The position numbers and the translations under genes were made by a program. Below are positions 10,200 through 52,130 of a stretch of 64,000 nt of DNA, one piece after another; the first letter of the stretch is position 1, and the number at the start of each line of letters is the position of its first letter. The notes under the pieces are model-generated. The model did no database searches and was not told the DNA's origin. It saw nothing but the letters and a program-made list of their open reading frames with translations. The stretch lies in the NCBI GenBank assembly GCA_963822575.1, contig CAWGHZ010000007.1, positions 1,375,655 through 1,439,654 on the forward strand, written 5' to 3'. Source of the stretch: an uncultured Alphaproteobacteria bacterium. GTDB lineage: Bacteria > Pseudomonadota > Alphaproteobacteria > MPNO01 > DASWLB01.

Positions 10200-10328
10200 G
10201 CTCGACCTGCCTGGCATGTTCCGCTATTCCGTTCGCCCAGGGTAGCGCCCCAAGTGCGCGCATTGAAAAGCGAACGAATACGTTGTGAGGCCCTCGGGAG
10301 CTAGCGCACGGGGACCTCGGAGGTTTCG

Positions 10329-11777
10329 TTGTCCGACTGGAAGCCGGTCTTCTACGTGCTCGGCTGGATGCTGATCGCGCTGGCGGTGGCGATGGCGGTG
10401 CCGACGCTCGCCGACGCGGCGGTCGACAACACGGACTGGCGCAATTTCGCTGCCTCGGGCGCGATGACGCTCGCGATCGGCGGGTTGCTGGTCACCGCCA
10501 ACCGCGCGACAAACATGCGGGTGGGGGTACGCCAGGCCTTCGTGCTCACCACGCTCGCCTGGATGGCGGTGTCGGCCTTCGCCGCGCTGCCGTTCGTGTT
10601 CTCCAACATCAAGCTCGACTACGCCGACGCGTTCTTCGAAGCGATCTCCGGCCTGACCACCACCGGCTCCACCATCCTGATCGGGCTGTCGACCCAACCG
10701 CCCGGCATCCTGCTGTGGCGTTCGATCCTGCAGTGGCTGGGCGGCATCGGCATCATCGCTATGGCGGTGATCATGCTGCCGTTCCTCAATGTCGGCGGGA
10801 TGCAGCTTTTCCGCATGGAATCCTCGGACCGGTCGGAGAAGATCCTGCCGCGCCCGCGCCAGATCGCCGCCTGGCTGTTCTTCGCCTACGTCGGCATATC
10901 CGTGCTGTGCGTCGGGACCTACTGGGCGCTCGGCATGACCTTCTTCGAGGCGATGTGCCACGCCATGACGACCATCTCGACCGGCGGCTATTCCACCTCC
11001 GACGCCTCGTTCGGGTACTTCCAGAACCCGCCGCTCGAATGGGCGGCGGTGGTGTTCATGCTCGCGGGCGGGCTGCCCTTCGTGCTCTATGTCGGGGCGC
11101 TTCGCGGCCGGTTCCGCGATCTCGTCACTAACGCCCAGGTGAAGGGGCTCGTCGGATTCCTGGCGGTGGTCTCGCTCGCCATCGCCTGCTGGCTCGCCAT
11201 CGTGCACCATGCCCCATTCTTGGAAGCGCTGCGCCTCGCCACGTTCAACGTCGTCTCGGTGGTCACCACGACCGGCTATGCCAGCACCGATTACAATAGC
11301 TGGGGCGGCTTCCCCGTGCTGACGCTGCTGCTGCTCAGCTTCGTCGGCGGCTGCGCTGGCTCGACCGCGGGCGGCATCAAGTTCTATCGGCTGCAGGTGC
11401 TGTGGGACATGATGACGAAGCGCGTGCGCCAGCTCATTTTCAGCCATGCCGTCACCACGCCGACCTACGACGGAAGGCCGCTCTCGGTCGAGGTGCGGCT
11501 TTCCATCGGCGTGTTCTTCTTCGTCTACGTCATGACGGTGGTTATCATCGCGGTAGCGCTCGCCGCGCTCGGGCTCGACCCGATCACGGCGTTGAGCGGC
11601 GCGGCCGCCACGGTGGGCAATGTCGGCCCCGGGCTCGGGCCGATCATCGGGCCGGCCGGCACCTACGCCAGCCTGCCCGATGCCGCCAAGTGGCTGATGT
11701 CGGCCGGCATGCTGCTCGGCCGGCTCGAGATGTTCACCGTCCTGGTGCTGATGTCGCCGACGTTTTGGCGCGCCTAA
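10329..11777 (+). CDS. trkH: TrkH/KtrB family potassium uptake protein
   Basis: 482 aa polytopic membrane protein with repeated TTGS/TGG selectivity motifs. Confidence 0.85.
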   Translation: MSDWKPVFYVLGWMLIALAVAMAVPTLADAAVDNTDWRNFAASGAMTLAIGGLLVTANRATNMRVGVRQAFVLTTLAWMAVSAFAALPFVFSNIKLDYADAFFEAISGLTTTGSTILIGLSTQPPGILLWRSILQWLGGIGIIAMAVIMLPFLNVGGMQLFRMESSDRSEKILPRPRQIAAWLFFAYVGISVLCVGTYWALGMTFFEAMCHAMTTISTGGYSTSDASFGYFQNPPLEWAAVVFMLAGGLPFVLYVGALRGRFRDLVTNAQVKGLVGFLAVVSLAIACWLAIVHHAPFLEALRLATFNVVSVVTTTGYASTDYNSWGGFPVLTLLLLSFVGGCAGSTAGGIKFYRLQVLWDMMTKRVRQLIFSHAVTTPTYDGRPLSVEVRLSIGVFFFVYVMTVVIIAVALAALGLDPITALSGAAATVGNVGPGLGPIIGPAGTYASLPDAAKWLMSAGMLLGRLEMFTVLVLMSPTFWRA

Positions 11778-14401: not shown

Positions 14402-14513
14402 GCCACCACCTTCCGGCGCTGTTCTACTTCAGTTGCCTTTACGCGTCATTGCACGGCGAGAAGGGCGGAATCGCCCGGATGACAACGCCCCCGAGTCCGG
14501 CTAAAGAGGCGGG

Positions 14514-20354: not shown

Positions 20355-20362
20355 GTTTAGTC

Positions 20363-20443
20363 GTCATTGCGACGCGCGCAGCGCCGAAGCAATCCAGTGG
20401 CCGCAGACGTTGCCTAGGATTGCTTTGCTTCGCCCGCAATGAC
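20363..20443. repeat. ~80-bp imperfect-palindrome intergenic repeat (copy A), forms a long hairpin; REP/MITE-like
   Basis: GTCATTGCGA...GCAATCCAG..GGCCGCAGACG..CTGGATTGC...TCGCAATGAC; near-identical copy at 34817-34897. Confidence 0.75.
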
Positions 20444-20449
20444 GGAAAC

Positions 20450-33364: not shown

Positions 33365-34017
33365 TGCAAGTCATATTGTTGGAACGAGTCGAGAAGCTGG
33401 GCCAGATGGGCGACGTCGTCGACGTCAGGCCTGGCTTCGCGCGCAACTACCTCCTGCCCCAGGGCAAGGCGCTGCGCGCGACCGACGACAACCGCAAGCG
33501 CTTCGATGAGCGCCGCACCCAGCTCGAGGCGACGAACCTCACCCGCCGCCAGGAGGCCGAGGCGGTCGCCGGCAAGATCGTGGGGATGGTGCTGTCGCTG
33601 ATCCGCCAGGCGAGCGAATCCGACCAGCTTTACGGCTCGGTCAGCGCGCGCGACCTGCACAAGGGCCTCGCCGACGCCGGCATCACGCTGGAGCGGCGCC
33701 AGGTGCTCCTGGACCAGACCATCAAGTCGGTCGGGCTGCACAAGTTCCGCGTGGCGCTGCACCCCGAGGTCATCGTTGAGCTCACCGCCAACGTCGCGCG
33801 CTCGCCCGACGAGCTGGAGATCCAGGCGCGCGGCGAGCGTCCGGCCGACGTCGCCGAACGCCAGGCCGAGCAGGAGGCACGGCTCGCCGCCGAGGAGGTG
33901 TTCGAGCGCGGCGCCGCACCGGAAGAGTTGTCCGAGGGCCGGCCCGAACCGGCCGCCGGAGACGAGGAGGACGAGGACAAGCCGTCGGAGACTACCCTCG
34001 CCCGCCGCCGTCGATAG
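33364..34017 (+). CDS. rplI: 50S ribosomal protein L9 with acidic C-terminal extension
   Basis: [36 protein letters not shown]. Confidence 0.95.
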
Positions 34018-34045
34018 ACGCGCCCGCACGGCGCGAGGGGGCTCC

Positions 34046-34813
34046 GTGCCGTTCGAAACGATCGCCTTCGTCGCCGCCGAGACCGCGACGGCCCAGTCGG
34101 CACTCAAGCGCCTGCGCAAGCGCTACGGCAACTCGCCGCCCGAAACGGCGGACGTGATCGTCACTCTCGGCGGCGACGGCACGATGCTCGAGACGCTGCA
34201 CCGCTATCTCGACCGCGAGGTGCCGTTCTACGGCATGAACCGCGGCACGGTCGGATTTCTCCTCAACGAGTTCAGCGAGACGAAGCTGCGCGAGCGGCTC
34301 GCGCGCGCGACGCCGGTGCGCCTCCACCCGCTGCGCATGACCGCCCGCACCATCGCCGGCGGCGCATCCGAGGCCATCGCCATCAACGAGGTGTCGCTGC
34401 TGCGCGAGAGCCGCCAGGCGGCGAAGCTCCGCATCCGGATCGACTCGCGCGTGCGCATGTCCGAGCTCGTCTGCGACGGGGTGGTCATCGCGACGCCGGC
34501 CGGCTCGACCGCCTACAACCTCTCGGCGCACGGGCCGATCGTGCCGCTCGGCACCGGGCTCCTCGCGCTGACCCCGATCAGTGCGTTCCGCCCGCGGCGC
34601 TGGCGGGGTGCGCTTCTGCCCGCCTCGGCGCAGGTGACCATCCAGATATTGGAACCGGCGAAGCGGCCGGTCTCGGCCGTCGCCGACTATACCGAGGTGC
34701 GCGACGTGCGCGAGGTGCGCGTCCGCGAGGCCAAGGACATCCGCCTCACGATCCTGTTCGACCCCGAGCACAATCTCGAGGAGCGCATCCTGAACGAGCA
34801 GTTCATCCCATAG
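34046..34813 (+). CDS. nadK: NAD+ kinase
   Basis: GGDGTML motif and NEVSL motif; GTG start. Confidence 0.85.
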
Positions 34814-34816
34814 ACC

Positions 34817-34897
34817 GTCATTGCGAGGACCGCAGCGACGGAGCAATCCAGGGGCCGCAGACGTAGCCCTGGATTGCTCCGCTTCGCTCGCAATGAC
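34817..34897. repeat. ~80-bp imperfect-palindrome intergenic repeat (copy B)
   Basis: Matches the 20363-20443 copy at about 85% identity and keeps the stem; sits just after the nadK stop. Confidence 0.75.
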
Positions 34898-34939
34898 GAC
34901 CCAGGCGGGTATAATCGCTACGACGAAACGGAGGACCGA

Positions 34940-36601
34940 ATGACCGCGGCCGCCCGGGGCTACGCCGACCTGCACGACCATATCGAGGCCCTGGAGAAGG
35001 CGGGGCTGCTCACCACCATCGACGCGCCGGTGAACAAGGACACCGAGCTGCACCCGCTGGTGCGCTGGCAGTTCCTCGGCGGCATCGCAGAGCCCGAGCG
35101 CAAGGCGTTCCTGTTCAAGAACGTCGTCGATGGGCACGGCCGCAAGTACGACATGCCCGTCGTGGTCGGCGCGCTCGCCGCCAACGCCGCCGTCTACGCC
35201 ACCGGCATGGGCGTGAAGGTCGCCGAAATCCAGGCGAAGTGGGACCACGCGATGGACCATCCCGTCGCGCCGCGCCTGGTGAACGAGGCGCCGTGCCACG
35301 AAGTGGTGGTCGAGGGGGCCGACCTGATGGGCCCCGGCAAGGGGCTCGACGCGCTGCCCATCCCCGTTTCGACGCCGGGCTTCGATTCCGCCCCGACGCT
35401 CACCGCCACCAACGTCATCACTAAGGACCCGGAAACCGGCGTGCAGAACATGGGCACGTACCGTGCCGGGCTGAAGGCGTCGGACCGGCTGGTGGTGCGC
35501 ATGGCGACGCGCATCGGCGGTGCCGGCGGGTATCTCCACTGGCAGAAATACAAGAAGCGCGGCGAAAAGATGGAATGCGCCATCGTCGTCGGCTGCCCGC
35601 CCTACGTCGCCTATGTCGCGCCGCAGAAGCTGCCGCTCGACATGGACGAGATCGAGCTCGCGGGCGGGCTCGCCGGCGCGCCGATCAACGTCGTCCGCGC
35701 CCGCACGGTGGACCTGATGGTGCCGGCCGAGGCGGAGCTGGTGATCGAGGGCATCATCGACCCCGAGATGGTCGAGCCCGAAGGCCCGTTCGGCGAGTCG
35801 CACGGCCACGTCGCGCTCGAGGAGTTCAACATGCCGATGCGGGTGACGGCCATCACCCACCGGCGGAACGCCGTGATCCCGTCCTATATCAGCCAGGTCG
35901 CGCCGTCGGAATCCTCGGTCATCAAGCGCGTCGCCTACGAGCCGATCTTCCTCCATCATCTGCGCGACCAGCTCGGCATCCGCGGCGTCAGCCGCGTCTC
36001 CATGCACGAGAAACTGACCGGGCTTCTCCGCATCACCATCATCAGCTTCAAGCGTGCAACGCCGAAGACGGAGGTGTGGCGCGCGCTCTACGCCGCCGCG
36101 GCCTACCGCTCGGACTGGTCGAAGATCTGCATCGCCGTGTCGGAGGACATCGACCCCGACAACGCCGACGCGATCCTATGGGCCATGGCCTACCGCATCA
36201 ATCCGGTGGAGGACGTGAAGACGCTGGGCCACCGCGCCCAGGGGCACGGACCGAAACGCGAGCATCACGGCGAGGAGGACTCGACGCTGCTGATCGACGC
36301 CACGATGAAAAGCGACATGCCGCCCCTTGCCCTGCCCGCTCGCGAATACATGGAGGGCGCGAAGAAGCTGTGGGAGAAGATCGGCCTGCCCAAGCTCAAC
36401 CCGGAATCGCCTTGGCACGGCTACTCGCTCGGCGACTGGACCGAGCAGTGGGCCGACATGGCGAAGCGCGCCGCCGCGAGCGATTGGCTCGAGAATGGCA
36501 AGCGCACGCTGCAGCGCCAGCGCAAGAACATCGTGCCCGAGACCTCCGTCCGCGACGTGGAGGAGGGCTGGGACGGCAAGAATGGCGACGCCAAGAAATG
36601 A
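34940..36601 (+). CDS. UbiD-family (prFMN-dependent) decarboxylase, paralog 2, first gene of a 4-gene operon
   Basis: GGAGGACC RBS; UbiD-like with EGPFGESHGH motif; stop overlaps next start (ATGA). Confidence 0.8.
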   Translation: MTAAARGYADLHDHIEALEKAGLLTTIDAPVNKDTELHPLVRWQFLGGIAEPERKAFLFKNVVDGHGRKYDMPVVVGALAANAAVYATGMGVKVAEIQAKWDHAMDHPVAPRLVNEAPCHEVVVEGADLMGPGKGLDALPIPVSTPGFDSAPTLTATNVITKDPETGVQNMGTYRAGLKASDRLVVRMATRIGGAGGYLHWQKYKKRGEKMECAIVVGCPPYVAYVAPQKLPLDMDEIELAGGLAGAPINVVRARTVDLMVPAEAELVIEGIIDPEMVEPEGPFGESHGHVALEEFNMPMRVTAITHRRNAVIPSYISQVAPSESSVIKRVAYEPIFLHHLRDQLGIRGVSRVSMHEKLTGLLRITIISFKRATPKTEVWRALYAAAAYRSDWSKICIAVSEDIDPDNADAILWAMAYRINPVEDVKTLGHRAQGHGPKREHHGEEDSTLLIDATMKSDMPPLALPAREYMEGAKKLWEKIGLPKLNPESPWHGYSLGDWTEQWADMAKRAAASDWLENGKRTLQRQRKNIVPETSVRDVEEGWDGKNGDAKK

Positions 36602-37467
36602 AGGCCGCGCCGTTCGCCTATCGCCGCGCCGAAAGCATCGCCGACGCCTGCGCCGCGCTCGAATCCGACGACGCGATGATCATCGCGGGCGGCCAGACGC
36701 TCGTGCCGCTGATGGCGATGCGCTTCGCCCGGCCGGCGCTGCTGATCGACATCAACGACATCGCCGACCTCAAGGGCATCGAGGCCCGCCCCGACCGGCT
36801 GGTGATCAGGGCCGCCACGCGCCAGGCGGACGCGCTCGCTGCCACCGATGTGAAGCGCGCCGCACCGCTCCTCGCCAAGGCCCTGCCCTGGGTCGGCCAC
36901 GGCCAGACCCGGGCGCGCGGCACAATCGGGGGCTCCGTCGCGCTCGCGGATCCCTCCGCGGAAATCCCGCTGGTCGCGGTTGCCCTCGGCGCGGCGATCA
37001 CGCTGCACGCCACGCGCGACGACCGCGTCGTGCCGGCCGAGGGGTTCTTCCTCGGCGCGATGGAGACGGCCCGCCGGTCGCACGAATGCCTGACCGCGGT
37101 GGCCTTCCCGGTTTGGACCGAGGCCGGACGCATCGGCACGGGCTTCACCGAGATCGCCGAGCGCCACGGCGACTTCGCCATCGTCGCCGCGGCGGCGCAG
37201 CTTCTGGTGGACGCCGATGGCGTGTGCCGGCGCGCTTCGGTCGCGGTCGGCGGCGCCGCGCCCGCGCCCGTCCGCGCCAAGGCAGCGGAGGCGGCGCTGG
37301 TCGGGTCGAAGCTGGACGACGCCGCCATCAAGAAGGCTGCGGCAGAGGTCGCGTCGCTGCTCGACCCGCCCGAGGACGGCCACGCCAGCGCCGCGTACCG
37401 CCGCCGCGTCGCGCCCGAACTGGTGCGCCGCGCCATTTCAGAAGCCGCGCGGGAGGCGCGGGCATGA
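36598..37467 (+). CDS. Molybdenum hydroxylase FAD-binding medium subunit (CoxM/XdhB family)
   Basis: IIAGGQTLVPLM FAD-binding motif; CO-DH flavoprotein C-terminal domain. Confidence 0.85.
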   Translation: MKAAPFAYRRAESIADACAALESDDAMIIAGGQTLVPLMAMRFARPALLIDINDIADLKGIEARPDRLVIRAATRQADALAATDVKRAAPLLAKALPWVGHGQTRARGTIGGSVALADPSAEIPLVAVALGAAITLHATRDDRVVPAEGFFLGAMETARRSHECLTAVAFPVWTEAGRIGTGFTEIAERHGDFAIVAAAAQLLVDADGVCRRASVAVGGAAPAPVRAKAAEAALVGSKLDDAAIKKAAAEVASLLDPPEDGHASAAYRRRVAPELVRRAISEAAREARA

Positions 37468-37949
37468 CCGCGCCCGTTCCCGTCCGCCTCACTGTCAATG
37501 GCCGCGCGCGCGAGGCCGAGGCCGAGCCGCGCGTCACGCTGCTCGATTTCCTGCGCGACCATCTCGGCCTCACCGGCACGCACATGGGTTGCGAGCACGG
37601 CGTGTGCGGCGCCTGCTCGGTGCTGCTCGACGGCGTCGCCGTGCGCTCCTGCCTAATCTTCGCCGTCATGGCCGCGGGGCACGAGGTGACGACGGTCGAG
37701 GGGCTCTGCATGGAGGACGGCTCGCCCGGCGTGCTGCAGGAATGCTTCTGGGATGGCCACGCGCAGCAATGCGGCTATTGCACGCCCGGCATGCTGATCG
37801 CCGCCGAGGCGCTGCTCGCGCACAACCCGACGCCAACGCGCGACGAGATCGAGGAGGCGATCTCCGGCAATCTCTGCCGCTGCACAGGCTATGTGCAGAT
37901 CGTGGAATCGATCGCCCGCGCCGCCGAGCGCAGGAAGGCAGGCGAGTGA
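37464..37949 (+). CDS. Molybdenum hydroxylase 2Fe-2S small subunit (CoxS family)
   Basis: C-x4-C-x2-C (CEHGVCGACSV) and C-x2-C...C-x-C (QCGYCTPG...CRCTGY) clusters. Confidence 0.9.
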   Translation: MTAPVPVRLTVNGRAREAEAEPRVTLLDFLRDHLGLTGTHMGCEHGVCGACSVLLDGVAVRSCLIFAVMAAGHEVTTVEGLCMEDGSPGVLQECFWDGHAQQCGYCTPGMLIAAEALLAHNPTPTRDEIEEAISGNLCRCTGYVQIVESIARAAERRKAGE

Positions 37950-40342
37950 TGGACGACGCGCCGCACCTCAAGAACTACCGCTTCGTCGCCCGGCCGCGCC
38001 GCACCAAGGAGGCCGAGCGCTTCGTCACCGGCGCCGGCACCTACGTGCAGGACGTGAAGCTGCCGGGCACCAAGCATATTGCGCCGGTGGCGAGCCCCTA
38101 CCCGCGCGCGAAGATCCTCTCCATCGACGCGTCGGAGGCGCTGGCGATGGACGGCGTGCACGCCGTCGTCACCGGCGCTGAGCTCGCCCGCGACACCGAG
38201 CCGATGTTCCAGGGGCTCGATATCCCCAAGGTGCGCTGGTACCCGCTGGCGCACGAGATCACCCGCTATGCCGGGGAGTGGGTGGCGGCGGTCTGCGCCG
38301 ACAGCCGGGCGCTGGCCGAGGATGCCGCCGAGAAGGTGGTGGTCGAGTACGAGCCCTTAGAGCCCGTGATCGATCCCGAGGCGGCGCTCGCGCCCGACGC
38401 GCCGCTGGTCCATCCCGACCACGGCACGAACCTCCTCTATTCCGGACGGTTCGTGTGGGGTCCGGTCGACGACGATTTCGCCGCCGCCGAGCACCGGCTG
38501 AAATTCCGCGCGCGTTGGGGGCGCAGCGCGACCGTACCGATCGAGACGTTCGGCGCACTGGCGCAATGGAACCGCGGCACCAAGATCCTCGACGTCTGGG
38601 CCTCGATCCAGATGACCAATTACGCCGAGCAGCTCGCCCACGCGCTGCGCCTGCCGGTCAATTCCGTCGCCGTGCACCAGGAGGTCGACGTCGGCGGCAG
38701 CTACGGTACCAAGCGCGGCATGAAGCACACCATCCTGTGCGGCCATCTCGCGCGCAAGCTCGGGTTCCCCGTGCGCTTCATCGAGGACCGGATCGACAAT
38801 CTGGCCGCGGGCGATTCGCACGGCCCGGACCGCATCTTCGACATGGAGGTCGCGTTCGAGTCCGACGGGCGCATCCTCTCGCTGAAAATCTTCGCCATCG
38901 ACGACGCCGGCGCGTATCCGGGCCGCGCGCCATTCCAGCTCGCCAAGCCGATCACCGCCATCGTCGGGCCGTACCAGATCAATTCCGTCGAATACCGCCC
39001 GACCTCGGTCACCACCAATAAGTCGGGCGAGGTGGCGGTGCGCGGCTTCGGCCAGTCGCCGACCAACTGGGCGATCGAGACCGCGGTCGACAAGGTGGCG
39101 CGGCACTTGGGCATGGACCGGCTGGAGCTGCGCCGCAGGAACCTGATCCGCAAGGACCAGTTCCCCTACGAGATCCCGTCGGGCACCAAGTACGATTCCG
39201 GCGACTACCACACGGTGCTGGACAAGGCCCTGGCGCTTGCCGACTACGACGCGCTGGTGAAGCGGCGTGACGCGATCCGCGCCGCGGGGCGGCTCGCCGG
39301 AATCGGCATCGCCTGCTGCCTGGAGCCCTCTGGCGGCAACAACATCCACGAGAACCTGATCAACCCCAAGCTCGCCGTCACGACCTTCATGGAGGCGTGC
39401 CAGGTGCGCATCGACCTCAACGGCGTGGTCACCGCGATGATGGGCACGACGACCTCGGGCCAGGGGCACGAGACGCTGGTCGCCACCATCGTCGCCGAAG
39501 AGCTGGAGCGCGACCCCGACGCGATCCGCGTGGTACACGCGGACTCGCTTGTCGGCCTCGTCACGCGGAGCCCGGTGGCGAGCCGCATGGCGATCATGCT
39601 GGGCGGCGCGGCGGCGGGCGCGGCGCAGAAGCTCAAGCGGAAGCTCCTCACGATCGCCGCCCATAATCTCGGCGTGCCGGCGGAGGCGCTGGAGTACGAA
39701 AGCGGCGATATCGTCGTTGCGTCCGACCGGTCGAAGAAGCTCACCTGGGCGGAGCTCTGCCGCATCGCTCATCAGCGGCTCGACCTGATGCCGGAGGGGA
39801 TGGAGCCCGCGCTGAACGAACTCCACGTCATGTCGGTGCCGCTCGGCGGGAAGCTTCCCGACGAGAACAAGCGGGTGCAGATCTACCCCTGCTTCGCCTT
39901 CCAGGCGCACGTGCCGTTCGTCGAGATCGACCCGGTGACCGGCAAGGTGACGATCTTGGACTACGTGATCGCGCACGATTGCGGCACGGTGATCAACCCC
40001 GGCATCGTGCGCGGCATGATCATAGGTGGCATCGCCCATGGGATCGGCGCGGCGCTCTACGAGAAGTTCGCCTACGGCCCGGACGGGCAGTTCTTCGCCG
40101 CGTCGTTCATGGACTATCTGCTGCCATCGGTGCACGAGATACCGCGCGTGCGCGATGTCGAGCACTGCACCCCCTCGCCGCTGACCTCGCACGGCCAGAA
40201 GGGCTCGGGCGAAGGCGGCTATCTCGGCGCGCCCGCCGCCATCGCCAGCGCCGTGAACGACGCGTTGGCGCCCCTGGGCCTGTCGCTCGACGAGACGCCG
40301 ATGCGCCCCGCGCTGGTCGAGGCGCTGCTCAACGCCGGATAG
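37949..40342 (+). CDS. Molybdenum hydroxylase large molybdopterin-binding subunit (CoxL/XdhA family; lacks the form I CODH AYRCSFR motif)
   Basis: 797 aa aldehyde oxidase/xanthine dehydrogenase a/b-hammerhead plus MoCo-binding domains; start overlaps coxS stop (TGATG). Confidence 0.85.
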
Positions 40343-40399
40343 GAAAGGGCGCCCGCTTGCGCGGGCGCCCTTCGGCCGGATAGCACTTCGGCTGGTGCG

Positions 40400-42518
40400 T
40401 CAGTGCGGCAGCAGCCCGGCGAGGATGGCGAGCAGCAGCAGCGCCACGATGTTGATGATCTTGATCATCGGGTTGACCGCCGGTCCCGCCGTGTCCTTGT
40501 ACGGGTCGCCGACCGTGTCGCCGGTCACCGCCGCCTTGTGCGCGTCGGAGCCCTTGCCGCCGTAATGGTCGTCCTCGATATACTTCTTGGCGTTGTCCCA
40601 GGCGCCGCCGCCCGAGGTCATCGAGATCGCGACGAACAGGCCGGTGACAATGGTGCCGAGCAGCAGTGCGCCGAGGGTGGTGAACGCCGCCACCTCGCCG
40701 GCGATCCACCAGATCACCAGCCAGACGACGATCGGCGCCAGCACCGGTAGCAGCGACGGCAGGATCATCTCGCGGATCGCCGCCCTGGTCAGCAGATCGA
40801 CGGCGCGGCCGTACTCGGGCTTGGCCGTGCCCGCCATGATGCCGGGGATCTCCTTGAACTGGCGGCGCACCTCGACGACCACGCTGCCCGCCGCGCGGCC
40901 GACCGCCTGCATGCCGAGCGAGCCGAACAGATAGGGCAGCAGACCGCCGAGCAGCAGACCGACGACGACGTAGGGGTCCTGCAGGCGGAACTCGATCTGG
41001 CCGGCGAGGTTCGGGAAGTAGTGCTTGAGGTCCTGGGTGTAGGCGGCGAACAGCACCAGCGCGGCGAGGCCCGCCGAGCCGATGGCATAACCCTTGGTCA
41101 CCGCCTTGGTGGTGTTGCCTACGGCGTCGAGCGCGTCGGTCGAGGTGCGCACTTCGGCCGGCAGGTCGGCCATCTCGGCGATGCCGCCCGCGTTGTCCGT
41201 GACCGGCCCGTAGGCGTCGAGCGCGATCACCACCCCGGCGAGCGCCAGCATGGTGGTCGCGGCGAGCGCGATGCCGAACAGCCCGGCCGCGTAATAGGCG
41301 AGCAGGATGCCGGCGCAGATCACAACCACCGGCAGGGCCGTCGCTTCCATCGACACGGCGAGCCCCTGGATCACGTTCGTGCCGTGGCCGGTCTGCGAGG
41401 CGCGGGCGACCGACAGCACCGGCTTGTGGTCGGTGCCCGTGTAGTACTCTGTAATCCACACCAGGAGGCCGGTGACGCCCAACCCGACCAGGACGCATTC
41501 CATCAGGGAGAAGCCGGTGAGCTGGACGGCGCCCATCGCGATCGGCGCCGAAAAGCCCCCGAACAGGACCCAGGTGGCGATACCGACCAGCACGAACGAG
41601 ATCGCCGCCGAGGCGATGAAGCCCTTGTAGAGCGCGCCCATGATGTTGTTGGACGGGCCCAGCCGGACGAAGAACACGCCGATCACCGAGGCGATGATGC
41701 ACACCCCGCCGATCACCAGCGGGTAGACCATCATCGTCTCCAGCGGCGCACCGGTGAAGAAGATGCCGGCGAGCAGCATGGTCGCCACCATGGTGACCGC
41801 ATAGGTCTCGAACAGGTCGGCCGCCATGCCGGCGCAGTCGCCCACGTTGTCGCCCACGTTGTCGGCGATCACGGCGGCGTTGCGGGGGTCGTCCTCGGGG
41901 ATACCCGCCTCGATCTTGCCGACCAGGTCGGCGCCGACGTCGGCGCCCTTGGTGAAGATGCCGCCGCCGAGCCGCGCGAAGATCGAGATCAGCGAGCCGC
42001 CGAACCCGAGCGCGACCAGCGCCTCGAGGATGTGGCGGAGCCCCGCGGGGTCGGCCGCGTTGAAGATGCCGCGCAGCACGAAATAATAGCCGGCGACACC
42101 CAACAGCCCGAGCCCGACCACCAGCATGCCGGTGATCGCACCCGACTTGAAGGCAATGTCGAGCGCCGGGCGAAGCCCGCCGGAGCGTGCCGCCTCGGCC
42201 GTCCGCACATTGGCCCGGACCGAGACGTTCATGCCGAGATAGCCCGCCGCGCCCGACAGGATGGCGCCGATGGCGAACCCGATCGCGCTGTAGACGCTCA
42301 GCAGGAATCCGAAGAATCAGGCAAACCACGATGCCGACGATGCCGATGGTGGTGTATTGCCGGTTGAGGTAGGCCTTCGCGCCCTCCTGGACCGCGGCCG
42401 CGATCTCCTGCATGCGCGCGGTGCCGGCGCTGGCGGCGAGGATCGCGCGGGACGCCCAGGCGCCGTAGCCGAGCGCCACGATCCCGCACGCGATCACAAA
42501 CCAGTAAGTCGATGTCAT
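40400..42518 (-). pseudogene. hppA: K+/H+-translocating membrane pyrophosphatase (HppA), frameshifted near 42311-42322
   Basis: N-terminal 70 aa ([21 protein letters not shown]...) in one frame, the remaining 610 aa (..[24 protein letters not shown]..) in the +1 frame. Confidence 0.8.
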
Positions 42519-45072: not shown

Positions 45073-45207
45073 CGAGAATCCGCGCCCGCAGCTACCCGGA
45101 CGCGCTGCCGGAGGTTGCCTGTCGGGCACCTCCCGACCCGGCGATTACCGTCGCCGACGCCAGCGCGCGGCCGAGTGCCGCACAGATATCGGCGACCTCT
45201 TCTTCCG

Positions 45208-46332
45208 TCATCCGTGAATGGCTCGGAAGTTCGAGAGACGTGGCGCAACGGCGGTCGCAAAGGGAAAGGTTCCGCCGTGGCTGAAGTCCAGTGCATAGCC
45301 CCGGCGCGTCGCGACCCCCAACCGTAGTAGCGCCGCCCGTAAATCCTCGCGATCCGTACCGTCCGGCAGCACCACCATGATGCGGGTCAAGTACCGCCCG
45401 GGCTTAAATTGTGGGAAGCGCACGCCCGGTATTCCGGCAAGATGGCGATGAAACAGGCCACCGACGCGAACACGCCCTTCGATCCGCGCGGTACAAGTCT
45501 CGAGCTGGGTCAACGCGATCGCCGCGCTGATATTGGGCATGCGCGTCGGAGGAAAGTAAGGGGGCGCCCATTTCTTGCCGAAGGCACGCTGCAATATTTC
45601 CCGCCAGTAATAAGTCGCCAAAGAAAAAATGGACTCGAATTGATAGTCCTTGAGATATGCCAACAAGTTGTTCAGTTTGTAGCTTGGGTCAGGGAGTTCC
45701 TCCCATTGCACTTGTGCCGCGCCCGCAAGGTCGGGGTTATTCCAAACCACGAGACCACCGGCCTCATAGCAACCTGTCACGAGAGTCTTAGACGTCGCGA
45801 AGCTGATGATCCCTGCGTCCCCGAAACCCCCGAAAGCTCTTCGGCGACTCGCGCGCACCCCGATCAAATTGGCCGCATCGTCGATGAGGAAGATGCCCTT
45901 ATTGCGACACAGGGCTTCGATCTTTTCGATTTCGCAAGGACATCCATATGCGTGAACCGCTATGACGGCGTGCGTTCGTTCCGAGATTGCCCGCTCCAGA
46001 CAGTCCACCGAGACGTTAAGGTCAGGTTCGATATCGACCGGTACCGGCGAAAGTCCCGCCTTCACTATGGCCTCGATCACGCTATCGCAAATGTATGCCG
46101 GATAAATGACCTCGCTTTTCCCGGGACGGTTTTGGGAAGACGCCTTCAACGCAAACCAGATGGCGGATCGCGCCCGATTGACCGGAAATATCGTTGCGTT
46201 TGGATAGCTGTCGCGAAAATGCGCGACGATTGAATCCACTGACCGGCCGACATTCGCGCGACCCAGAACGACGGCCCCTAAAGCGGCCACATAGTCCCGC
46301 CGCCCCCATTCTCCATAAATCATCGGGTGCAT
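45208..46332 (-). CDS. DegT/DnrJ/EryC1/StrS family PLP-dependent sugar aminotransferase
   Basis: 374 aa; SFATSKTL lysine motif; lower-GC region. Confidence 0.8.
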   Translation of the reverse strand: MHPMIYGEWGRRDYVAALGAVVLGRANVGRSVDSIVAHFRDSYPNATIFPVNRARSAIWFALKASSQNRPGKSEVIYPAYICDSVIEAIVKAGLSPVPVDIEPDLNVSVDCLERAISERTHAVIAVHAYGCPCEIEKIEALCRNKGIFLIDDAANLIGVRASRRRAFGGFGDAGIISFATSKTLVTGCYEAGGLVVWNNPDLAGAAQVQWEELPDPSYKLNNLLAYLKDYQFESIFSLATYYWREILQRAFGKKWAPPYFPPTRMPNISAAIALTQLETCTARIEGRVRVGGLFHRHLAGIPGVRFPQFKPGRYLTRIMVVLPDGTDREDLRAALLRLGVATRRGYALDFSHGGTFPFATAVAPRLSNFRAIHG

Positions 46333-46362
46333 AAGGGACCTTCTCGAAGACCTAGCTTTTAT

Positions 46363-47036
46363 CTAGGCGAACGCCGGAAAATACGAACCACCCGGCATTC
46401 CACTCGAACTTGTTGATCCCCAGCTTGCCCAAGAACCTCTTGGGATCGTCCGAGCCCACCGCAGATCTCGGAAATATTCGCGGAACGTCATTCCGCGGAA
46501 CAGAGGCTTTGCGGTCCGCACGATCAAATCGATTGCGATAAGACCACCGTACCTTTCGCGCACTTCTTTCTCGTTCTGAAAAAATCGCACATGCGTGGAA
46601 TAATCGAAATTCGGCACGGTGCAGATACAGAACGTTCCCGGCTTCCATAGCTTGACCGCAGAAATGTCCTGTTCGATATGTTCAAGAACCTCCGTGCAGA
46701 CGATACAGTCATAATCATACGAGCTGTAAGCTTCCGGCTCTAGAGCGTTTCCGACAAACACGACGCCGCTCTTGCCAAGACGCTGCGCCGCATTTTTTAC
46801 CGCAATCTGGCTAAAATCGAACCCACGATACTCGATGGCACATTTTTGGACGATCATCTCCGCGAGTCGGCCGCTTCCGCATCCGACTTCGAGGACGTGC
46901 CACGTTGCGCGCGTTGCACCTTATCCACAATATCGCAATACATAGGATAGTATTCTGATTTCGTGACCGGAAGGTCCGGGCGTCCCCATTCGGCATGAAG
47001 TTCATCGTAGACAGTAAGATCCGCTTCTTTTCCCAT
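46363..47036 (-). pseudogene. Class I SAM-dependent methyltransferase, frameshifted near 46895-46905 (CGCGCG run)
   Basis: N-terminal 45 aa in one frame up to ..VDKVQRA; motif I LEVGCGSGRLAEMIVQK continues in the other frame. Confidence 0.65.
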
Positions 47037-47047
47037 GTCACATGGTC

Positions 47048-48525
47048 CTATAGGTATTGCGGCTGGCGCTGAATCAATCTTCGAAGCCCGATCAGCAACG
47101 TGCGCTCTGCCCCACCCGGTCGTCCGGACATTAGCCACATAGTCAACGTCACCGCCGAAAACACGACCACACCAGAGACTACCGAAGCTCCAAGGACCAT
47201 GCCCCATCCAAGAGCATCATGCGAATGGGGTAGCTGCGCTTGGCACTCGAGAACGACGACGACCATCACGAGAGATCCTATCAATGGCCGATATAGGACC
47301 CCAAGAAGCCTTCCTGGAGCGAGGTTAAGAATTCGGCAAACAAGTAGAAAGTCAATGAATGACGAAACCGCTGCACCGCCGGTAACCGCCCATGCCGCTC
47401 CAACAACTCCAAGGTGGCTCACACCTATAACAAGCAATGGCAACATCACGATGGCGCCACCACCAAAAACCCATGCGGGATATTGCGGCCGCGAACATGC
47501 CATGAACAAGGGATGACTGCACGAGGTTAAGCAGGCAAGCAGCGCATAAACGGAAAGGACATGCATGATAGGTATCGCGGCGACCCATTTTTCGCCAAGC
47601 GCCAAGTGAACCACGGAACTGGCAACAAGGCCCAAGCCGACGGCAACGGGCACGGCAAAAAGGCTCGCGAGGCCGAATACTCCGAGGAAAGCCTGACGTA
47701 GCTCCGGCAGGTCTCCAGAAATCTTCGCGAAAGCAGGATAGATGCCACGCCTCATGGGCGCCAAGAGAAGACCGGTCACCATATCCATGATTTCAAGTGC
47801 AATCGTGTATACACCGACCGACTGGGCTCCCGCGAGCCGGCCCAGCACGAAGACATCGCTCTTTCTATATAAAAAGACACCAGAATTGACTAGGATCAGC
47901 CATTTCGAAAAATGCATGATCTCGCGCCAATGCTGGAACTCAGCCGCGGGCGCATGGGCTGCATCGTGTAGCTGAGGACAAGCGCACCACGGAGAGGCCG
48001 CGATTCCGGCCACCAATGCCCAATAGCTCGCGAAATGATGGCCAGCGGGATGATCACGACGAAACCGCCCAGCTTCGTAACCACCATGTAAATGAAGTCG
48101 CGGCGGAAATTGAGCTGCTTGCGGAAATCTACGAGGCCGATGTTCTGGAACCCATCGATCAATGTCGTGCCCGCCAGGCAATACACGATCGCCTCGAGCC
48201 GCGCGTCGCCGAACAACTCGGCGAAACGAACGGCGCGGCGGGAAGGAGCGCCAGCGCCAGGACCGCGTTGCGGCAGATGGCGAGCGTCCACGCCGTATCG
48301 TAATGCTGGCGTGTCGCCTTCTGGTTCTGGATCAGGACCGTGTCGAGGCTGAACTCGGTCACCGCCTGAAGGGCCCCGGAAAAGGTAGTGGCGAGCGCGA
48401 CGAGGCCGAAATCGGCCGGGACGAGCAGTCGCGCCAGAATGATCGTGCTGAGCATCCCGATCCCCTGCGACGGCGAGCCGCGCGCCGACAGTCCAGGCGG
48501 TGCCCTTGGCCATCTCGCGGCCCAT
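47048..48525 (-). pseudogene. wzx: Wzx-like polysaccharide flippase (polysaccharide biosynthesis protein family), at least three frameshifts
   Basis: Flippase N-terminus ..AWTVGARLAVAG / GIGMLSTIILARLLVPADFGLVALA split at a GGGG run (48462); further shifts near 48240 and 48000; C-terminal 370 aa intact. Confidence 0.65.
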
Positions 48526-49954
48526 GCCCTGGGTCGCCGCGCGGCACTCGGCTCGGACGACGGTGCCGTCGGGTCGCGACGGGCGTGCGGACGACGTCAT
48601 ATCTATGCGCGCCGGCATAGCGCCTTCCCCGATAAGGCCGTTCGAGAAACGCCTCCGCACGGGCGAACTGCAAGTCGCGGGCCAACCCCTCGCGCGCGGC
48701 GACCGGAAGGCGTGGGATGACCCCCTGCGCCGCTTTCTCGCGCGCCCAATCCCGCAAGTGTCCGGCGATGACGTCGGGATCCGTCGACACGGCCCCGGCC
48801 CGGCGGGCGCGCACGAAGTCCGCAGGCACCCCCTTGTCATATCCCATCACCAGGATCGGTCGCAGGCTCGCCAGATATTCGAACAGCTTGCCGGGGCAGT
48901 TGCCGGTCTCCATCGGGTTGTCCCACTGCATGAGAAGCAGGACGTCGGCATCCCATTGGAGCTGCAGCGATTTGTCGTACGGCACCGCCGGGTGTACCTC
49001 CACCAGGTGCCGTACGCCCGCCCTTTCGGCAAGCGGCCAGACCGCTTCGGGAGCGGTCCCATAAAATTCGAGAACGAAACGTTCGCCCTCGGGATCGATC
49101 TGCCGCAACGCCTGGAACAAGGGCGTCGGGTCGCGGCGCCCGACATAGATCGCCCCGGTGTAGACGATCCGCACCTTCGCCGAGACGGATTTCGGCGGCG
49201 CGCTCGGGTCGAACGAAAAATCCTTGGGATCGTAGCCGTTATAGACCGTCGCGACAGGCTTGCCGTATTTGGCACGATAGAACTCGCACCACGGCTCGGT
49301 GACGGTAACGATGCCCGTGGCGTTACGCAGCGTGCGCCGCTCCACCCACTGTTCCAGCCTGTGGCGCCAGCGCGGCCAATCCAGGAAGCGGTAGGGATCG
49401 TCCGCCCAACGATCGCGGAGCTCCGCGAGCCATGGCACGCCGAGCCGGGCACTCGCGCGGTGCGCGACGAGGAAGGCGGTGAAGGACGGGCCGCTGGCAT
49501 AGATCGCATCCGGCCGCCATGCCCGCCCCAGGCGCAGCACGTCGCGCAACGCGTACGGGTACCACCCGACCCGTTGGTCCGGGATGTTCAGCAGATTCGT
49601 GTAGCAGTCGGACAGACGCCGCAGCAACGCCGGGCGCGACGTGCCGTTATCCGCTGCGCCCGTCTCGGCTTGGGGCGCGGCGGTTTCGGCGAGGGAGGCC
49701 GGCGGCTGCCCGGTCATCCGGGTCCACAGCCCGCTGCCCAGCCGGACGGGCGCGTTGACGTCGAACCAGTTGGAATACGAAAGCCGCTTCAGCTCGATTC
49801 CCAGCGGCATGGTCTCGGGCATGCCCCAGTCGCGGCCCGCCACAACGCCGACTTCGTGCCCCCGCTCGACCAGGTAACGGGTGAACTTGCCGACACGCAC
49901 TGCGCCGATCGCATTGACCGGAGGAAAGTACCACGAAACGATCAGAATTCGCAT
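48359..49954 (-). CDS. Glycosyltransferase family 4 (C-terminal boundary uncertain; the ORF runs on into wzx N-terminal region in another frame)
   Basis: Start MRILIVSWYFPP; GT4 N-terminal and C-terminal sugar-binding domains; true stop probably near 48550-48700. Confidence 0.7.
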   Translation of the reverse strand: MRILIVSWYFPPVNAIGAVRVGKFTRYLVERGHEVGVVAGRDWGMPETMPLGIELKRLSYSNWFDVNAPVRLGSGLWTRMTGQPPASLAETAAPQAETGAADNGTSRPALLRRLSDCYTNLLNIPDQRVGWYPYALRDVLRLGRAWRPDAIYASGPSFTAFLVAHRASARLGVPWLAELRDRWADDPYRFLDWPRWRHRLEQWVERRTLRNATGIVTVTEPWCEFYRAKYGKPVATVYNGYDPKDFSFDPSAPPKSVSAKVRIVYTGAIYVGRRDPTPLFQALRQIDPEGERFVLEFYGTAPEAVWPLAERAGVRHLVEVHPAVPYDKSLQLQWDADVLLLMQWDNPMETGNCPGKLFEYLASLRPILVMGYDKGVPADFVRARRAGAVSTDPDVIAGHLRDWAREKAAQGVIPRLPVAAREGLARDLQFARAEAFLERPYRGRRYAGAHRYDVVRTPVATRRHRRPSRVPRGDPGHGPRDGQGHRLDCRRAARRRRGSGCSARSFWRDCSSRPISASSRSPLPFPGPFRR

Positions 49955-50145
49955 GCCCGGGCCGTCGCGGTGGGCCGCCGAATGAACTGCCACGTCGGCG
50001 GTCACGTTGGGTCCCGACTTCGTCGGTTCTTGCCAAGCGATGAACGTCCCCCGCGACGGGGCCTCCGGCGGTGCCGCCCTTATAGCGGCGCCCCATCATC
50101 CCGTCAAAGCGCCACGAAATCGTTACCGGACGGAGGGTAAGGCCG

Positions 50146-51255
50146 TCAGCCTGCGAAATCTGCCAGGCGCACCGGCTGGCGGCGCGGGCCCCAGTCGCCG
50201 GGGCGCGGCTCGAACACGCCGGGAAGCCTGGCGCCGCAGCCGGTGCAGCATCCCTCCGCGTCCAGGTTCCACGCCCCCAGCGCGTACCAGTCGCGTTCGA
50301 TCAGGAGCGTGCCGCAGGCGGGGCACCACGTGCTGCCGCCGGCGGCGTCGTGCACGTTGCCGGTATAGACAAAGCGGAGCCCACGGGCCCGGGCGATCTC
50401 GCGCGCGCGGCCAAGGGTCGCAGCCGGGGTGGCATGCTTGCCGGTCATCTTCCAATCGGGATGGAAGGCGGTGAAGTGCACCGGCACGTCCGGGCCCAAA
50501 TGATCGCCAATCCACGCACATTCGGCGTCGATCTCGCCCGGCGAGTCGTTCTCGCCGGGGATCAGGAGCGTGGTGATCTCGAACCAGACCTTTGATTCGG
50601 CAAGATATTCTAGCGTCTCCAGAACTGGCGTCAGCGATCCGCCGCAGATCTTCCGGTAGAAATCGTCGGTGAACGCCTTCAGGTCCACGTTCGCCGCGTC
50701 CATGTGGGCGTAGAACTCGGCCCGCGCGGCGGGAAGCTGGTAGCCGGCCGTCACCGCGACGGTCTTGATCCCCCGCGCGCGGCACGCCTCGGCCACGTCG
50801 ATCGCGTATTCATGGAAGATGACGGGATCGTTGTAGGTGAAGGCGACCGACCGGCAGCCGAGCGCCTGGGCGGCGCGGGCGATGGTGTCGGGCGCGGCCT
50901 CGTCGGCCAGCGTATCCATCTCGCGCGATTTCGAGATGTCCCAGTTCTGGCAGAACTTGCAGGCGAGGTTGCAGCCCGCCGTGCCGAACGACAGGACCGG
51001 CGTTCCCGGCAGGAAATGGTTGAGCGGCTTCTTCTCGATCGGGTCGACGCAAAAGCCCGACGAGCGGCCGTAGGTGTCGAGCACGATGGAATCGCCCGCG
51101 CGCGACCGCACGAAACAGAGCCCGCGCTGGCCGTCGGCCAGCCGGCAGCGGCGCGGGCAGATCTCACACTCGATCCGCTGGTCGGCGAGCTTGCGGAAAT
51201 GGCGGCCCGGCGCGGGCGCCGGCCGGGCCGTCGGTCGACTCAGTATGCGTGCCAT
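50146..51255 (-). CDS. AmmeMemoRadiSam system radical SAM enzyme
   Basis: CNLACKFC (CxxxCxxC) radical SAM motif plus N-terminal Cys cluster ECEICPRRC; divergent from the Memo/AMMECR1 pair. Confidence 0.8.
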   Translation of the reverse strand: MARILSRPTARPAPAPGRHFRKLADQRIECEICPRRCRLADGQRGLCFVRSRAGDSIVLDTYGRSSGFCVDPIEKKPLNHFLPGTPVLSFGTAGCNLACKFCQNWDISKSREMDTLADEAAPDTIARAAQALGCRSVAFTYNDPVIFHEYAIDVAEACRARGIKTVAVTAGYQLPAARAEFYAHMDAANVDLKAFTDDFYRKICGGSLTPVLETLEYLAESKVWFEITTLLIPGENDSPGEIDAECAWIGDHLGPDVPVHFTAFHPDWKMTGKHATPAATLGRAREIARARGLRFVYTGNVHDAAGGSTWCPACGTLLIERDWYALGAWNLDAEGCCTGCGARLPGVFEPRPGDWGPRRQPVRLADFAG

Positions 51256-51338
51256 GGAGCGATTCCTCGCCTTGCAGATAGGCGGGCGAGACCACAGATT
51301 CAACAACATCTAGGCCACTCTTGCGAGGGGACATCAAT

Positions 51339-52130
51339 ATGCCGGTCGTCCAGCGCGCTGCCGTCGCCGGCACGTTCTATCCGGGCGAGCCGGACGTTCT
51401 CGCCCGCACGTTGGCGACGCTCCTCGCCACGGCCGAGCCCGAGACCGAGGGGCCGGTGCCCGCGGCGATCGTCGCGCCGCACGCGGGCTACGTCTATTCC
51501 GGCCCGATCGCGGCCAGCGCCTATGCCCGTCTCGCGCCCCTCAAGGGCACGGTGCGGCGTGTCGTTCTGATCGGGCCCGCGCACCAGCTCTATTTCCACG
51601 GCATCGCCGCGCCCACCGCGGACCAGTTCGAGACGCCGCTCGGCGCGATCCCGGTCGACCGCGCGGCGGTCGCGCGCCTCCTCGCGCTGCCGCACGTCGC
51701 CGAGAACGACGCCGCCTTTGCGGGCGAGCACTGCCTGGAAGTGCATCTTCCCTTCCTCCAGACCGTGCTGGGCGATTTCACGCTGGTGCCGCTGATCGCG
51801 GGCCATGCCGGCGGGCGCGACGTGGCCGAGGTGCTGGAGCTGTTGTGGGCCGGTCCCGACACGCTGCCGGTGATCTCGTCCGACCTCAGCCACTACCACG
51901 ATTACGAGACGGCCCGCCGGCGCGACGCCGAGACCGCTCGCGCCATCGAGGCGTTGGCCGGCGAACGGCTCGACTACGACGATGCCTGCGGCCGCACCCC
52001 GATTGCCGGGCTTCTGCAGGTCGCGCGGGCGCGCGGCCTTGCCGCCCGCACCGTCGACCTCCGCAACTCGGGCGACACGGCCGGCCCGCGCGGCGAGGTG
52101 GTGGGCTACGGCGCCTGGGTCGTGGAATGA
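51339..52130 (+). CDS. AmmeMemoRadiSam system protein B (MEMO1 family)
   Basis: MEMO-like sequence (IVAPHAGYVYSG, HCLEVHLPFLQ, SSDLSHY); GAGGGGACA RBS. Confidence 0.8.
   Translation: MPVVQRAAVAGTFYPGEPDVLARTLATLLATAEPETEGPVPAAIVAPHAGYVYSGPIAASAYARLAPLKGTVRRVVLIGPAHQLYFHGIAAPTADQFETPLGAIPVDRAAVARLLALPHVAENDAAFAGEHCLEVHLPFLQTVLGDFTLVPLIAGHAGGRDVAEVLELLWAGPDTLPVISSDLSHYHDYETARRRDAETARAIEALAGERLDYDDACGRTPIAGLLQVARARGLAARTVDLRNSGDTAGPRGEVVGYGAWVVE

Follow-up and report, generated by a model that had tools for sequence, protein, structure and literature searches.

Judged by the enzyme families involved, and not by sequence, the closest characterised analogue of the system described here appears to be the lumazine/pterin pathway. 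Cluster I of Cupriavidus sp. LA-1 encodes the lumazine dehydrogenase LuDH, DHLI, XCDC together with UbiX, and a pterin deaminase, and takes lumazine to xanthine, for whose further use the authors presume a separate xanthine oxidoreductase (XOR) (PMC12391406). The order of the LuDH genes is large-small-medium (L-S-M), with a large subunit that is not placed in the COX group, and DHLI, an amidohydrolase-2 isomerase, is an alpha/beta pair with subunits of ~27 kDa, in which Asp235 serves as a ligand and for which a GTPase is an obligatory companion (PMC12391406). XCDC itself is a divergent hexameric member of the UbiD family of decarboxylases, and the carboxyl group that it removes, in the catabolism of an N-heterocycle, lies beside a ring nitrogen. 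Likewise, in Cupriavidus basilensis HMF14 a UbiD decarboxylase (HmfFG, with UbiX) is combined with an enzyme of the xanthine dehydrogenase (XDH) family, HmfABC, which acts on the decarboxylated heteroaromatic ring; HmfD and HmfE are further members of this pathway. Here we describe an operon of four genes at positions 34940-40342, on the plus strand, of a 64-kb stretch of DNA with a GC content of 69% from an uncultured alphaproteobacterium (contig CAWGHZ010000007.1; this whole stretch is hereafter called the window), in which a UbiD-like decarboxylase is encoded together with a three-subunit molybdenum hydroxylase. The two enzymes form an uncharacterised yet conceptually familiar catabolic pair, whose pathway logic has precedents in the furan and lumazine systems. 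With a chance that we put somewhat above even, they would act in turn on a (hetero)aromatic carboxylic acid, for which an N-heterocycle is the likeliest, first or last removing its carboxyl group and in the other step hydroxylating it with oxygen from water.

The operon is situated between nadK and a hairpin resembling a repetitive extragenic palindrome (REP) on one side, and a convergent H+-pyrophosphatase gene on the other. Its first gene (34940-36601, plus strand) encodes the UbiD-like protein of 553 aa, with the Pfam domains UbiD_N, UbiD and UbiD_C. This is followed, on the same strand, by a CoxM/QorM-like FAD-binding medium subunit (36598-37467; 289 aa; FAD_binding_5 and CO_deh_flav_C), a CoxS/QorS-like [2Fe-2S] small subunit (37464-37949; 161 aa; Fer2 and Fer2_2), and a molybdopterin-binding large subunit of the CoxL/QorL/KdhL branch (37949-40342; 797 aa; Ald_Xan_dh_C, MoCoBD_1 and MoCoBD_2). 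A four-gene operon joined by ATGA, ATGA and TGATG overlaps had been proposed in an initial annotation of this DNA, and reading of the sequence gave the same coordinates and junctions, i.e. ATGA at 36598-36601 between the UbiD-like and CoxM-like genes, ATGA at 37464-37467 between the CoxM-like and CoxS-like genes, and TGATG at 37947-37951 between the CoxS-like and CoxL-like genes. While the hmf genes are distributed over two separate clusters, the operon found here is thus translationally coupled throughout. The GC content at third codon positions is 0.85-0.91 in the four genes and the Pfam E-values are strong (UbiD 6e-51, FAD_binding_5 6e-41, Fer2_2 2e-28, MoCoBD_2 3e-71), so they are not chance open reading frames (ORFs).

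All three Pfam domains of the UbiD-like protein were identified at or above their gathering scores, UbiD_N and UbiD_C with E-values of 3e-5 and 1e-10, respectively, while no NCBIfam cut-off was reached. The UbiD subfamily model TIGR00148 gave 211 bits versus a cut-off of 244.85, and the canonical ubiquinone UbiD equivalog NF008175 gave only 124.7 bits versus 788. Among solved structures the best match was HmfF (6H6X/6H6V, E 1.5e-36), followed by 7PDA, Escherichia coli UbiD, VdcC and TtnD. An AlphaFold2 model of moderate confidence (pLDDT 70.5, pTM 0.77; residues 418-465 and the extreme C-terminus below 50) matched HmfF, UbiD, AroY, HudA and Fdc1 with a Foldseek probability of 1.00 and target TM-scores of 0.62-0.75, and HmfF came first here as well, at an identity of 28-30%. 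Residues N170, H200, E237, R175, E281 and E286 align with their HmfF counterparts and do not vary in two alignments of the family, with 30 and 68 sequences, E281 and E286 falling in an EGPFGE motif. Going by Fdc1 and UbiD, we take N170, H200 and E237 to be the ligands of Mn2+ and prenylated flavin mononucleotide (prFMN), and R175, E281 and E286 to be the Glu-Arg-Glu catalytic network. As these residues are all intact and invariant, the protein is very probably an active prFMN decarboxylase. The furan specificity of HmfF is set by His296/297 (PMC7976604), and in the UbiD-like protein this histidine is replaced by Ser325, within an invariant PSESS segment. Furthermore, a C-terminal extension of about 90 residues, partly conserved and mostly helical in the model, continues past the end of the HmfF alignment. 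By its sequence, the protein belongs to a distinct UbiD subfamily and is neither a canonical UbiD nor HmfF. A search of the literature on UbiD enzymes linked to the XDH family or to pyridine-dicarboxylate pathways retrieved nothing on this UbiD subfamily.

The cofactor sites of the second enzyme are equally well preserved. The FAD subunit of 289 aa carries the AGGQTL and TIGGS motifs and has three cysteines and no [4Fe-4S] insertion, all eight cluster cysteines are present in the small subunit (C43/C48/C51/C63 and C103/C106/C138/C140), and the large subunit consists of a hammerhead domain and two domains that bind the molybdenum cofactor (MoCo). The solved structures closest to the large subunit were the Mycobacterium smegmatis CoxL (8UEM, E 3.7e-113) and QorL (1T3Q, E 2.1e-109), then CutL and KdhL. 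Qor is quinoline 2-oxidoreductase and Kdh is 6-hydroxypseudooxynicotine dehydrogenase. QorMSL (1T3Q), Kdh (7DQX) and the carbon monoxide dehydrogenases (CODHs; 8UEM, 1FFU and 1N5W) share the three-subunit architecture with M-S-L type subunits, they are the best matches by sequence (E 1e-93 to 4e-113) to the large subunit, and they also share its Mo-site glutamine and catalytic glutamate. These two residues, in the motifs SIQMTNY and GSGEGG, align with QorL and two CODHs and are kept in 30 orthologues; they presumably correspond to E743 in QorL and to Q240 and E763 in CODH. A UbiD decarboxylase is not known to be encoded alongside any of these enzymes. They differ from the present enzyme in another respect too, namely the Cu-binding Cys loop of CODH, which is absent here. 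The active-site loop AVRGFGQxPTN is conserved in the family and contains no cysteine, whereas form I CODH has VAYRCSFR and form II/group 5 CoxL-like proteins have AYRGAGR.

Genes 2-4 thus encode, as far as domains and motifs tell, a complete FAD, double [2Fe-2S] and molybdopterin enzyme of the CoxL/Qor/Kdh branch. When the large subunit was compared with curated models, every cut-off was missed by a wide margin: 427 bits versus 991 for form I CODH (TIGR02416), 476 versus 950 for the aerobic CODH model NF040766, its best NCBIfam match, 219-307 versus 780-916 for XdhA, PucD and xdhB, and 344 versus 994 for the alpha subunit of 4-hydroxybenzoyl-CoA reductase (4-HBCR), an enzyme whose FAD subunit would also carry the [4Fe-4S] insertion, with PaoC missed likewise. 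Consequently, the earlier claim of a large subunit without the form I CODH signature, belonging to a hydroxylase of unknown substrate, stands, and neither of the assignments that would have spoken against it, i.e. a form II CODH, for which the loop also differs, or a known xanthine dehydrogenase, was found. Classified by its sequence, this is a hydroxylase-type enzyme outside every curated family.

The linkage of the two enzymes is conserved far beyond the window. Out of 8000 metagenome proteins scored as candidates, all with E-values of at most 1e-20, the best 120 were 70-93% identical to the UbiD-like protein, forming a tight group that shrinks to a few representatives when clustered at 50%. 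UbiD-like relatives were confirmed in at least 349 species genomes of GTDB, and we examined the loci of the best 80 of these 349, almost all of which are metagenome-assembled genomes of Alphaproteobacteria, Burkholderiales and Gammaproteobacteria; the alphaproteobacterial carriers include Rhodospirillales, Stellaceae, Hyphomicrobiales and Defluviicoccus. In 49 loci the flanks extended for 7 kb or more on either side, and in 44 of these a candidate hydroxylase was encoded within 8 kb of the UbiD-like gene, which bears out the initial suggestion of an uncharacterised decarboxylation-hydroxylation module. In 30 of the 49 this was an orthologous CoxL (at least 50% identity), in eight another XDH-family set, and in six a protein with the acyl-CoA dehydrogenase (ACAD) fold (PF08028), a putative flavin monooxygenase encoded 2 nt after the UbiD-like stop codon. 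The CoxMSL genes are situated downstream on the same strand, as in the window, in seven loci, upstream on the same strand in 18 and divergently in 15, and the linkage between the UbiD-like protein and its hydroxylase therefore survives rearrangement. Moreover, UbiD-like proteins from different context classes (identity 0.71-0.74) are as similar to each other as those within the CoxMSL class (0.75), from which it follows that one UbiD-like orthologue occurs with alternative candidate hydroxylases. The full synteny of nadK, operon and hppA is common to the window and to L001 and L002, whose UbiD-like proteins are 92-93% identical.

The additional genes found in the relatives provide another layer of annotation. 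Most conspicuously, a single ACMSD-like Amidohydro_2 protein of 332 aa (best match 4OFC, E 3e-33) is present in 36 of the 40 CoxL-linked loci, though not in L001, L002, L040 or the window, where no ACMSD-like gene was detectable in the 64 kb. Other recurrent neighbours are transporters of the TRAP, TTT or NMT1-type ABC kinds, an isochorismatase-type amidase, a signature amidase, an alpha/beta-hydrolase, cupins and an FAD monooxygenase. A cog0402 deaminase was found in six marine loci, and crotonase-family genes adjoin CoxL in marine relatives. UbiX is adjacent in two of the 80 loci (L050 and L079). The presence of two decarboxylases together with carboxylate transporters in most relatives suggests that the substrate is a dicarboxylate. 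Some of this resembles the pic cluster of Alcaligenes faecalis JQ135, in which a molybdenum dehydrogenase (PicA) and an Amidohydro_2 decarboxylase (PicC) are combined with a maleamate pathway (bioRxiv 10.1101/530550). The families of that cluster, including the alpha/beta-hydrolase and the isochorismatase-type amidase, have equivalents around the module in Stellaceae-type relatives, while its accessory families are absent from the window. The pic cluster contains no UbiD enzyme that we know of. Two further clusters were considered and rejected, namely the dipicolinate dip cluster, which is monooxygenase-initiated and MoCo-independent, and the homarine hom operon, the text on which names neither molybdenum nor UbiD.

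In the loci of the ACAD class, the neighbours are a bicupin dioxygenase, an FAA hydrolase, a glyoxalase-fold protein and TRAP genes. A Defluviicoccus-type group with this arrangement comprises L085 and L086 (both 10001-12836), L005, L006, L017, L033, L034, L041, L048 and L070. Here the UbiD-like orthologue is 72-74% identical and the PF08028 protein takes the place of CoxMSL; the hydroxylase may have been replaced by a non-orthologous enzyme. In L028, L038, L042 and L075, the main UbiD-like copy has a paralogue of 56-60% identity beside it.

Taken as a route of consecutive decarboxylation and hydroxylation, the operon would function as follows. The UbiD-like enzyme, using prFMN supplied by a UbiX encoded elsewhere together with Mn2+ and K+, would catalyse the non-oxidative loss of a carboxyl group from the ring by way of a covalent adduct between prFMN and substrate, with the Glu-Arg-Glu network as acid and base. 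In the (alpha-beta-gamma)-type molybdenum hydroxylase formed by the products of genes 2-4, the Mo-OH group would attack an electron-poor ring carbon beside the heteroatom, the inserted oxygen coming from water, and two electrons would pass from molybdenum through two [2Fe-2S] clusters and FAD to an external acceptor, possibly NAD+ or a quinone. The likeliest order is decarboxylation, then hydroxylation of the freed or a neighbouring carbon, although the reverse order is possible; the net outcome would be the replacement of COOH by OH without O2. Whereas the gene structure, the domains, the intact cofactor and catalytic residues and the conserved linkage of the two enzymes are direct observations, we infer the activity, the step order, the substrate class and the electron acceptor. 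An N-heterocycle is favoured because of the Qor/Kdh-like large subunit, the N-handling neighbours in the relatives and the lumazine precedent.

Several observations weigh against this interpretation. In the window, the operon is adjoined neither by UbiX or a second decarboxylase nor by a transporter or regulator gene, its neighbours being housekeeping genes, and it is the neighbours of the relatives, not those of the window, on which the N-heterocycle is based. No candidate hydroxylase was found within 8 kb in five of the 49 loci with full flanks. The divergence of the UbiD-like protein and that of CoxL are correlated (Mantel r 0.91), but vertical co-inheritance alone is expected to give the same correlation, which makes it uninformative on functional coupling. 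Finally, the medium and small subunits gave their best NCBIfam scores with archaeal glyceraldehyde dehydrogenase models, and an aldehyde-oxidising role is therefore possible.

The last of these observations leads to a different order of events, in which the molybdenum enzyme acts first, as an oxidoreductase of an aldehyde that is either (hetero)aromatic or alpha,beta-unsaturated, and the resulting acid is the substrate of the UbiD-like decarboxylase (R-CHO to R-COOH to R-H). Many aldehyde oxidoreductases belong to the XDH family, and UbiD enzymes are established to take acrylic as well as aromatic acids (PMC7976604). The scores on the glyceraldehyde dehydrogenase models, 213.5 bits (beta, medium subunit), 199 (gamma, small subunit) and 443 (alpha, large subunit), are on the other hand far below the respective cut-offs of 350, 290 and 790, and the solved large subunits closest to the one found here are those of the N-heterocycle hydroxylases QorL and KdhL and of CODHs, not of aldehyde oxidoreductases. 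A putative monooxygenase as the partner in some relatives also fits hydroxylation better, and deaminases and amidases among the relatives' neighbours likewise speak against the aldehyde route, which we consider unlikely.

A bolder reading of the same decarboxylation and hydroxylation, and one that we regard as rather improbable, is that the UbiD-like protein and CoxMSL form one four-component machine for the O2-independent decarboxylative hydroxylation of an N-heteroaromatic alpha-carboxylate. The decarboxylated ring would then be handed straight to the molybdenum site, with the conserved C-terminal extension of the UbiD-like protein as a possible docking element. The tight coupling of the genes and this extension are the two observations in its favour, and nothing further was found to support it. 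If true, the machine would be an anaerobic-capable counterpart of the flavin-dependent decarboxylative hydroxylases, and it would explain why the same decarboxylase is alternatively found in operons with an ACAD-fold monooxygenase.

It is very unlikely that the operon is the orthologue of a part of the lumazine/pterin cluster, with the molybdenum enzyme as lumazine dehydrogenase and the UbiD-like protein as xanthine-8-carboxylate decarboxylase, even though cluster I, like the loci of the relatives, combines a three-subunit XOR-family molybdenum dehydrogenase with an Amidohydro_2 enzyme and a UbiD decarboxylase, and even though the deaminase family found in the six marine loci includes pterin, isoxanthopterin and 8-oxoguanine deaminases. 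The gene order is M-S-L here versus L-S-M in cluster I, and the large subunit is nearest to CoxL/QorL, while that of LuDH is not in the COX group. Instead of the DHLI pair with its GTPase, the relatives have the single ACMSD-like protein, and no GTPase family, DHLI-type or other, was found among the conserved neighbours scanned. UbiX and the pterin deaminase, both part of cluster I, are missing from the operon in the window. Gene order, paired amidohydrolase-2 and GTPase, UbiX and pterin deaminase thus all differ from the make-up of cluster I. Carboxylate transporters do not suit lumazine, and no genus listed for cluster I occurs among the 80 best loci. A number of other matches were also considered as possible lumazine-type loci and rejected: the plasmid matches H17, H20 and H36 are ubiquinone loci with UbiD, UbiX and UbiU/V/T, H5, H6 and H10 are members of a sister clade in which XDH-family genes and UbiX lie alongside, and none of P0125, P0129, P0132 and P0134 resembles cluster I.

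According to the initial annotation, the pairing matched hetero-aromatic acid catabolism as exemplified by the furan enzymes, in which case the UbiD-like protein would be the furandicarboxylate decarboxylase HmfF and the molybdenum enzyme the furoyl-CoA dehydrogenase HmfABC. HmfF is indeed the top match by both sequence and fold, and the crotonase-family genes beside CoxL in marine relatives are reminiscent of HmfE in the hmf cluster. However, the identity to HmfF is merely 28-30%, the furan-specific histidine is a serine, and neither a CoA ligase nor a 2-oxoglutaroyl-CoA hydrolase accompanies the operon here. Indeed, no CoA ligase was found near the operon in the window or among the conserved neighbour families of the relatives. 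The accessory genes of the relatives, i.e. deaminases, amidases, NMT1-type proteins and the ACMSD-like decarboxylase, are mostly N-handling and point to N-heterocycles instead. The furan system thus serves as an analogy only, a furan module being highly improbable, and the interpretation given in the initial annotation is partly supported overall. Its statement that the window holds no UbiX, CoA ligase or regulator was upheld for UbiX across the 64 kb (tblastn) and for a CoA ligase and a regulator beside the operon, the regulator scan having taken in part of the window's ORFs.

That the two enzymes are mere neighbours, a form II CODH-like enzyme beside a UbiD of ubiquinone biosynthesis, is hardly credible and already contradicted by the family scores, for although NF040766 is the best NCBIfam match of the large subunit and many UbiD-like homologues bear the JGI label "4-hydroxy-3-polyprenylbenzoate decarboxylase", both CODH models were missed twofold, the active-site loop is of neither CODH form, no coxDEFG accessory genes were found among the flanking ORFs scanned, the UbiD equivalog score is far too low, genuine UbiD+UbiX+UbiUVT clusters are only 28-31% identical, and the linkage to a hydroxylase is kept through rearrangements.

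More distant members of the family were found in other contexts. Cultured bacteria of the genera Sinorhizobium, Neorhizobium, Phyllobacterium and Paraburkholderia, strains of which could be used for experiments, carry a sister clade at 50-57% identity. In all three loci examined, i.e. Sinorhizobium meliloti pA (L087), a Neorhizobium petrolearium plasmid (L081) and Paraburkholderia caribensis (L082), it lies beside XDH-family genes and UbiX. The rhizobial loci of this clade contain two different XDH-family large subunits together with CoxM, CoxS, CoxG, GntR and UbiX. No amidohydrolase pair is present in the annotation of L081, and the ACMSD-like query matched nothing in L081, L082 and L087. More distant clades, 40-43% identical (P0125, P0129, P0132 and P0134), have contexts with isochorismatase/HpaB, Rieske dioxygenase, UbiX and CoA-transferase. 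In L088 (9231-12504), a locus of a clade at 43% identity, successive genes for isochorismatase, the UbiD-like protein and an NMT1-type binding protein overlap by 4 nt each and adjoin HpaB, a flavin reductase and GntR, an arrangement that suggests a route from amide to acid, followed by decarboxylation and hydroxylation.

Returning to the window, the borders of the operon are well marked. As stated in the initial annotation, it directly follows nadK (33776-34813) and a hairpin (34816-34898), the latter being a nested REP-like element that marks the boundary between the two. The arms of this hairpin are perfect, 12 nt at 34816-34827/34887-34898 and 15 nt at 34839-34853/34867-34881, and the region folds as RNA with a free energy of -53.9 kcal/mol (z -6.9). 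A second copy of the nested palindrome of ~83 nt, ~85% identical and in the same orientation, is found at ~20360-20445, with GTCATTGCGAG termini, and the element at 34816-34898 is therefore a dispersed REP-like repeat and not a signal of the operon. A Shine-Dalgarno sequence, GGAGG (34930-34934, plus strand), was read 6-10 nt upstream of the ATG of the UbiD-like gene, and a perfect candidate -10 box, TATAAT (34910-34915, plus strand), 25 nt upstream of the same start. Since the corresponding -35 box, within the right arm of the hairpin, is weak and a promoter consensus scan called none in or beside the operon, a promoter at this position can be inferred only. At the other end, a GC-rich stem-loop with a 12-bp stem (40345-40372; -28.7 kcal/mol, z -2.9) separates the large-subunit gene from the convergent hppA gene for H+-pyrophosphatase (40400-42232 and beyond, minus strand). 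It is terminator-like, though it has no T-run and was not flagged by a terminator scanner. Searches for tRNAs and Rfam families found nothing in or beside the operon.

The genes flanking the operon, of which about 40 ORFs were scanned for families, have housekeeping or cell envelope functions, e.g. fabF, mltG, rsmA, surA, lptD, lptFG, pepA, ndk, rpsF, nadK and hppA, together with a polysaccharide island, glycogen genes and flagellar genes. An Aas-like fusion protein of 884 aa (11774-14428, minus strand) with AMP-binding, PP-binding and acyltransferase domains, some 20 kb upstream, is the sole AMP-binding protein seen in the window scan and is unrelated to the operon. The region at ~45200-50000 has a GC content of 0.545, versus ~0.69 otherwise, and its genes are for polysaccharide biosynthesis: a DegT-type aminotransferase, a methyltransferase, a GT4 glycosyltransferase and a Polysacc_synt_3 flippase whose gene may be broken into two ORFs. 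Probably this is an O-antigen or exopolysaccharide island gained by horizontal transfer. A Memo-like gene and a radical SAM gene lie side by side in divergent orientation at 50146-52130, resembling part of the AmmeMemoRadiSam system.

Nothing is overturned by the finding of this operon. UbiD-family enzymes are, however, sought after as catalysts of reversible (de)carboxylation, and only a handful of their substrates are known. In this light, the UbiD subfamily described here is notable for its size, its conservation and its near-absence from cultured organisms, being found mostly in uncultured Proteobacteria of soil and sea. The presence of a water-dependent hydroxylase as its partner narrows the search for a substrate to heteroaromatic acids. 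Knowing that substrate would reveal a further route by which some common N-heterocyclic acid is turned over in soil and sea, and would also yield a new decarboxylase/hydroxylase pair for biocatalysis.

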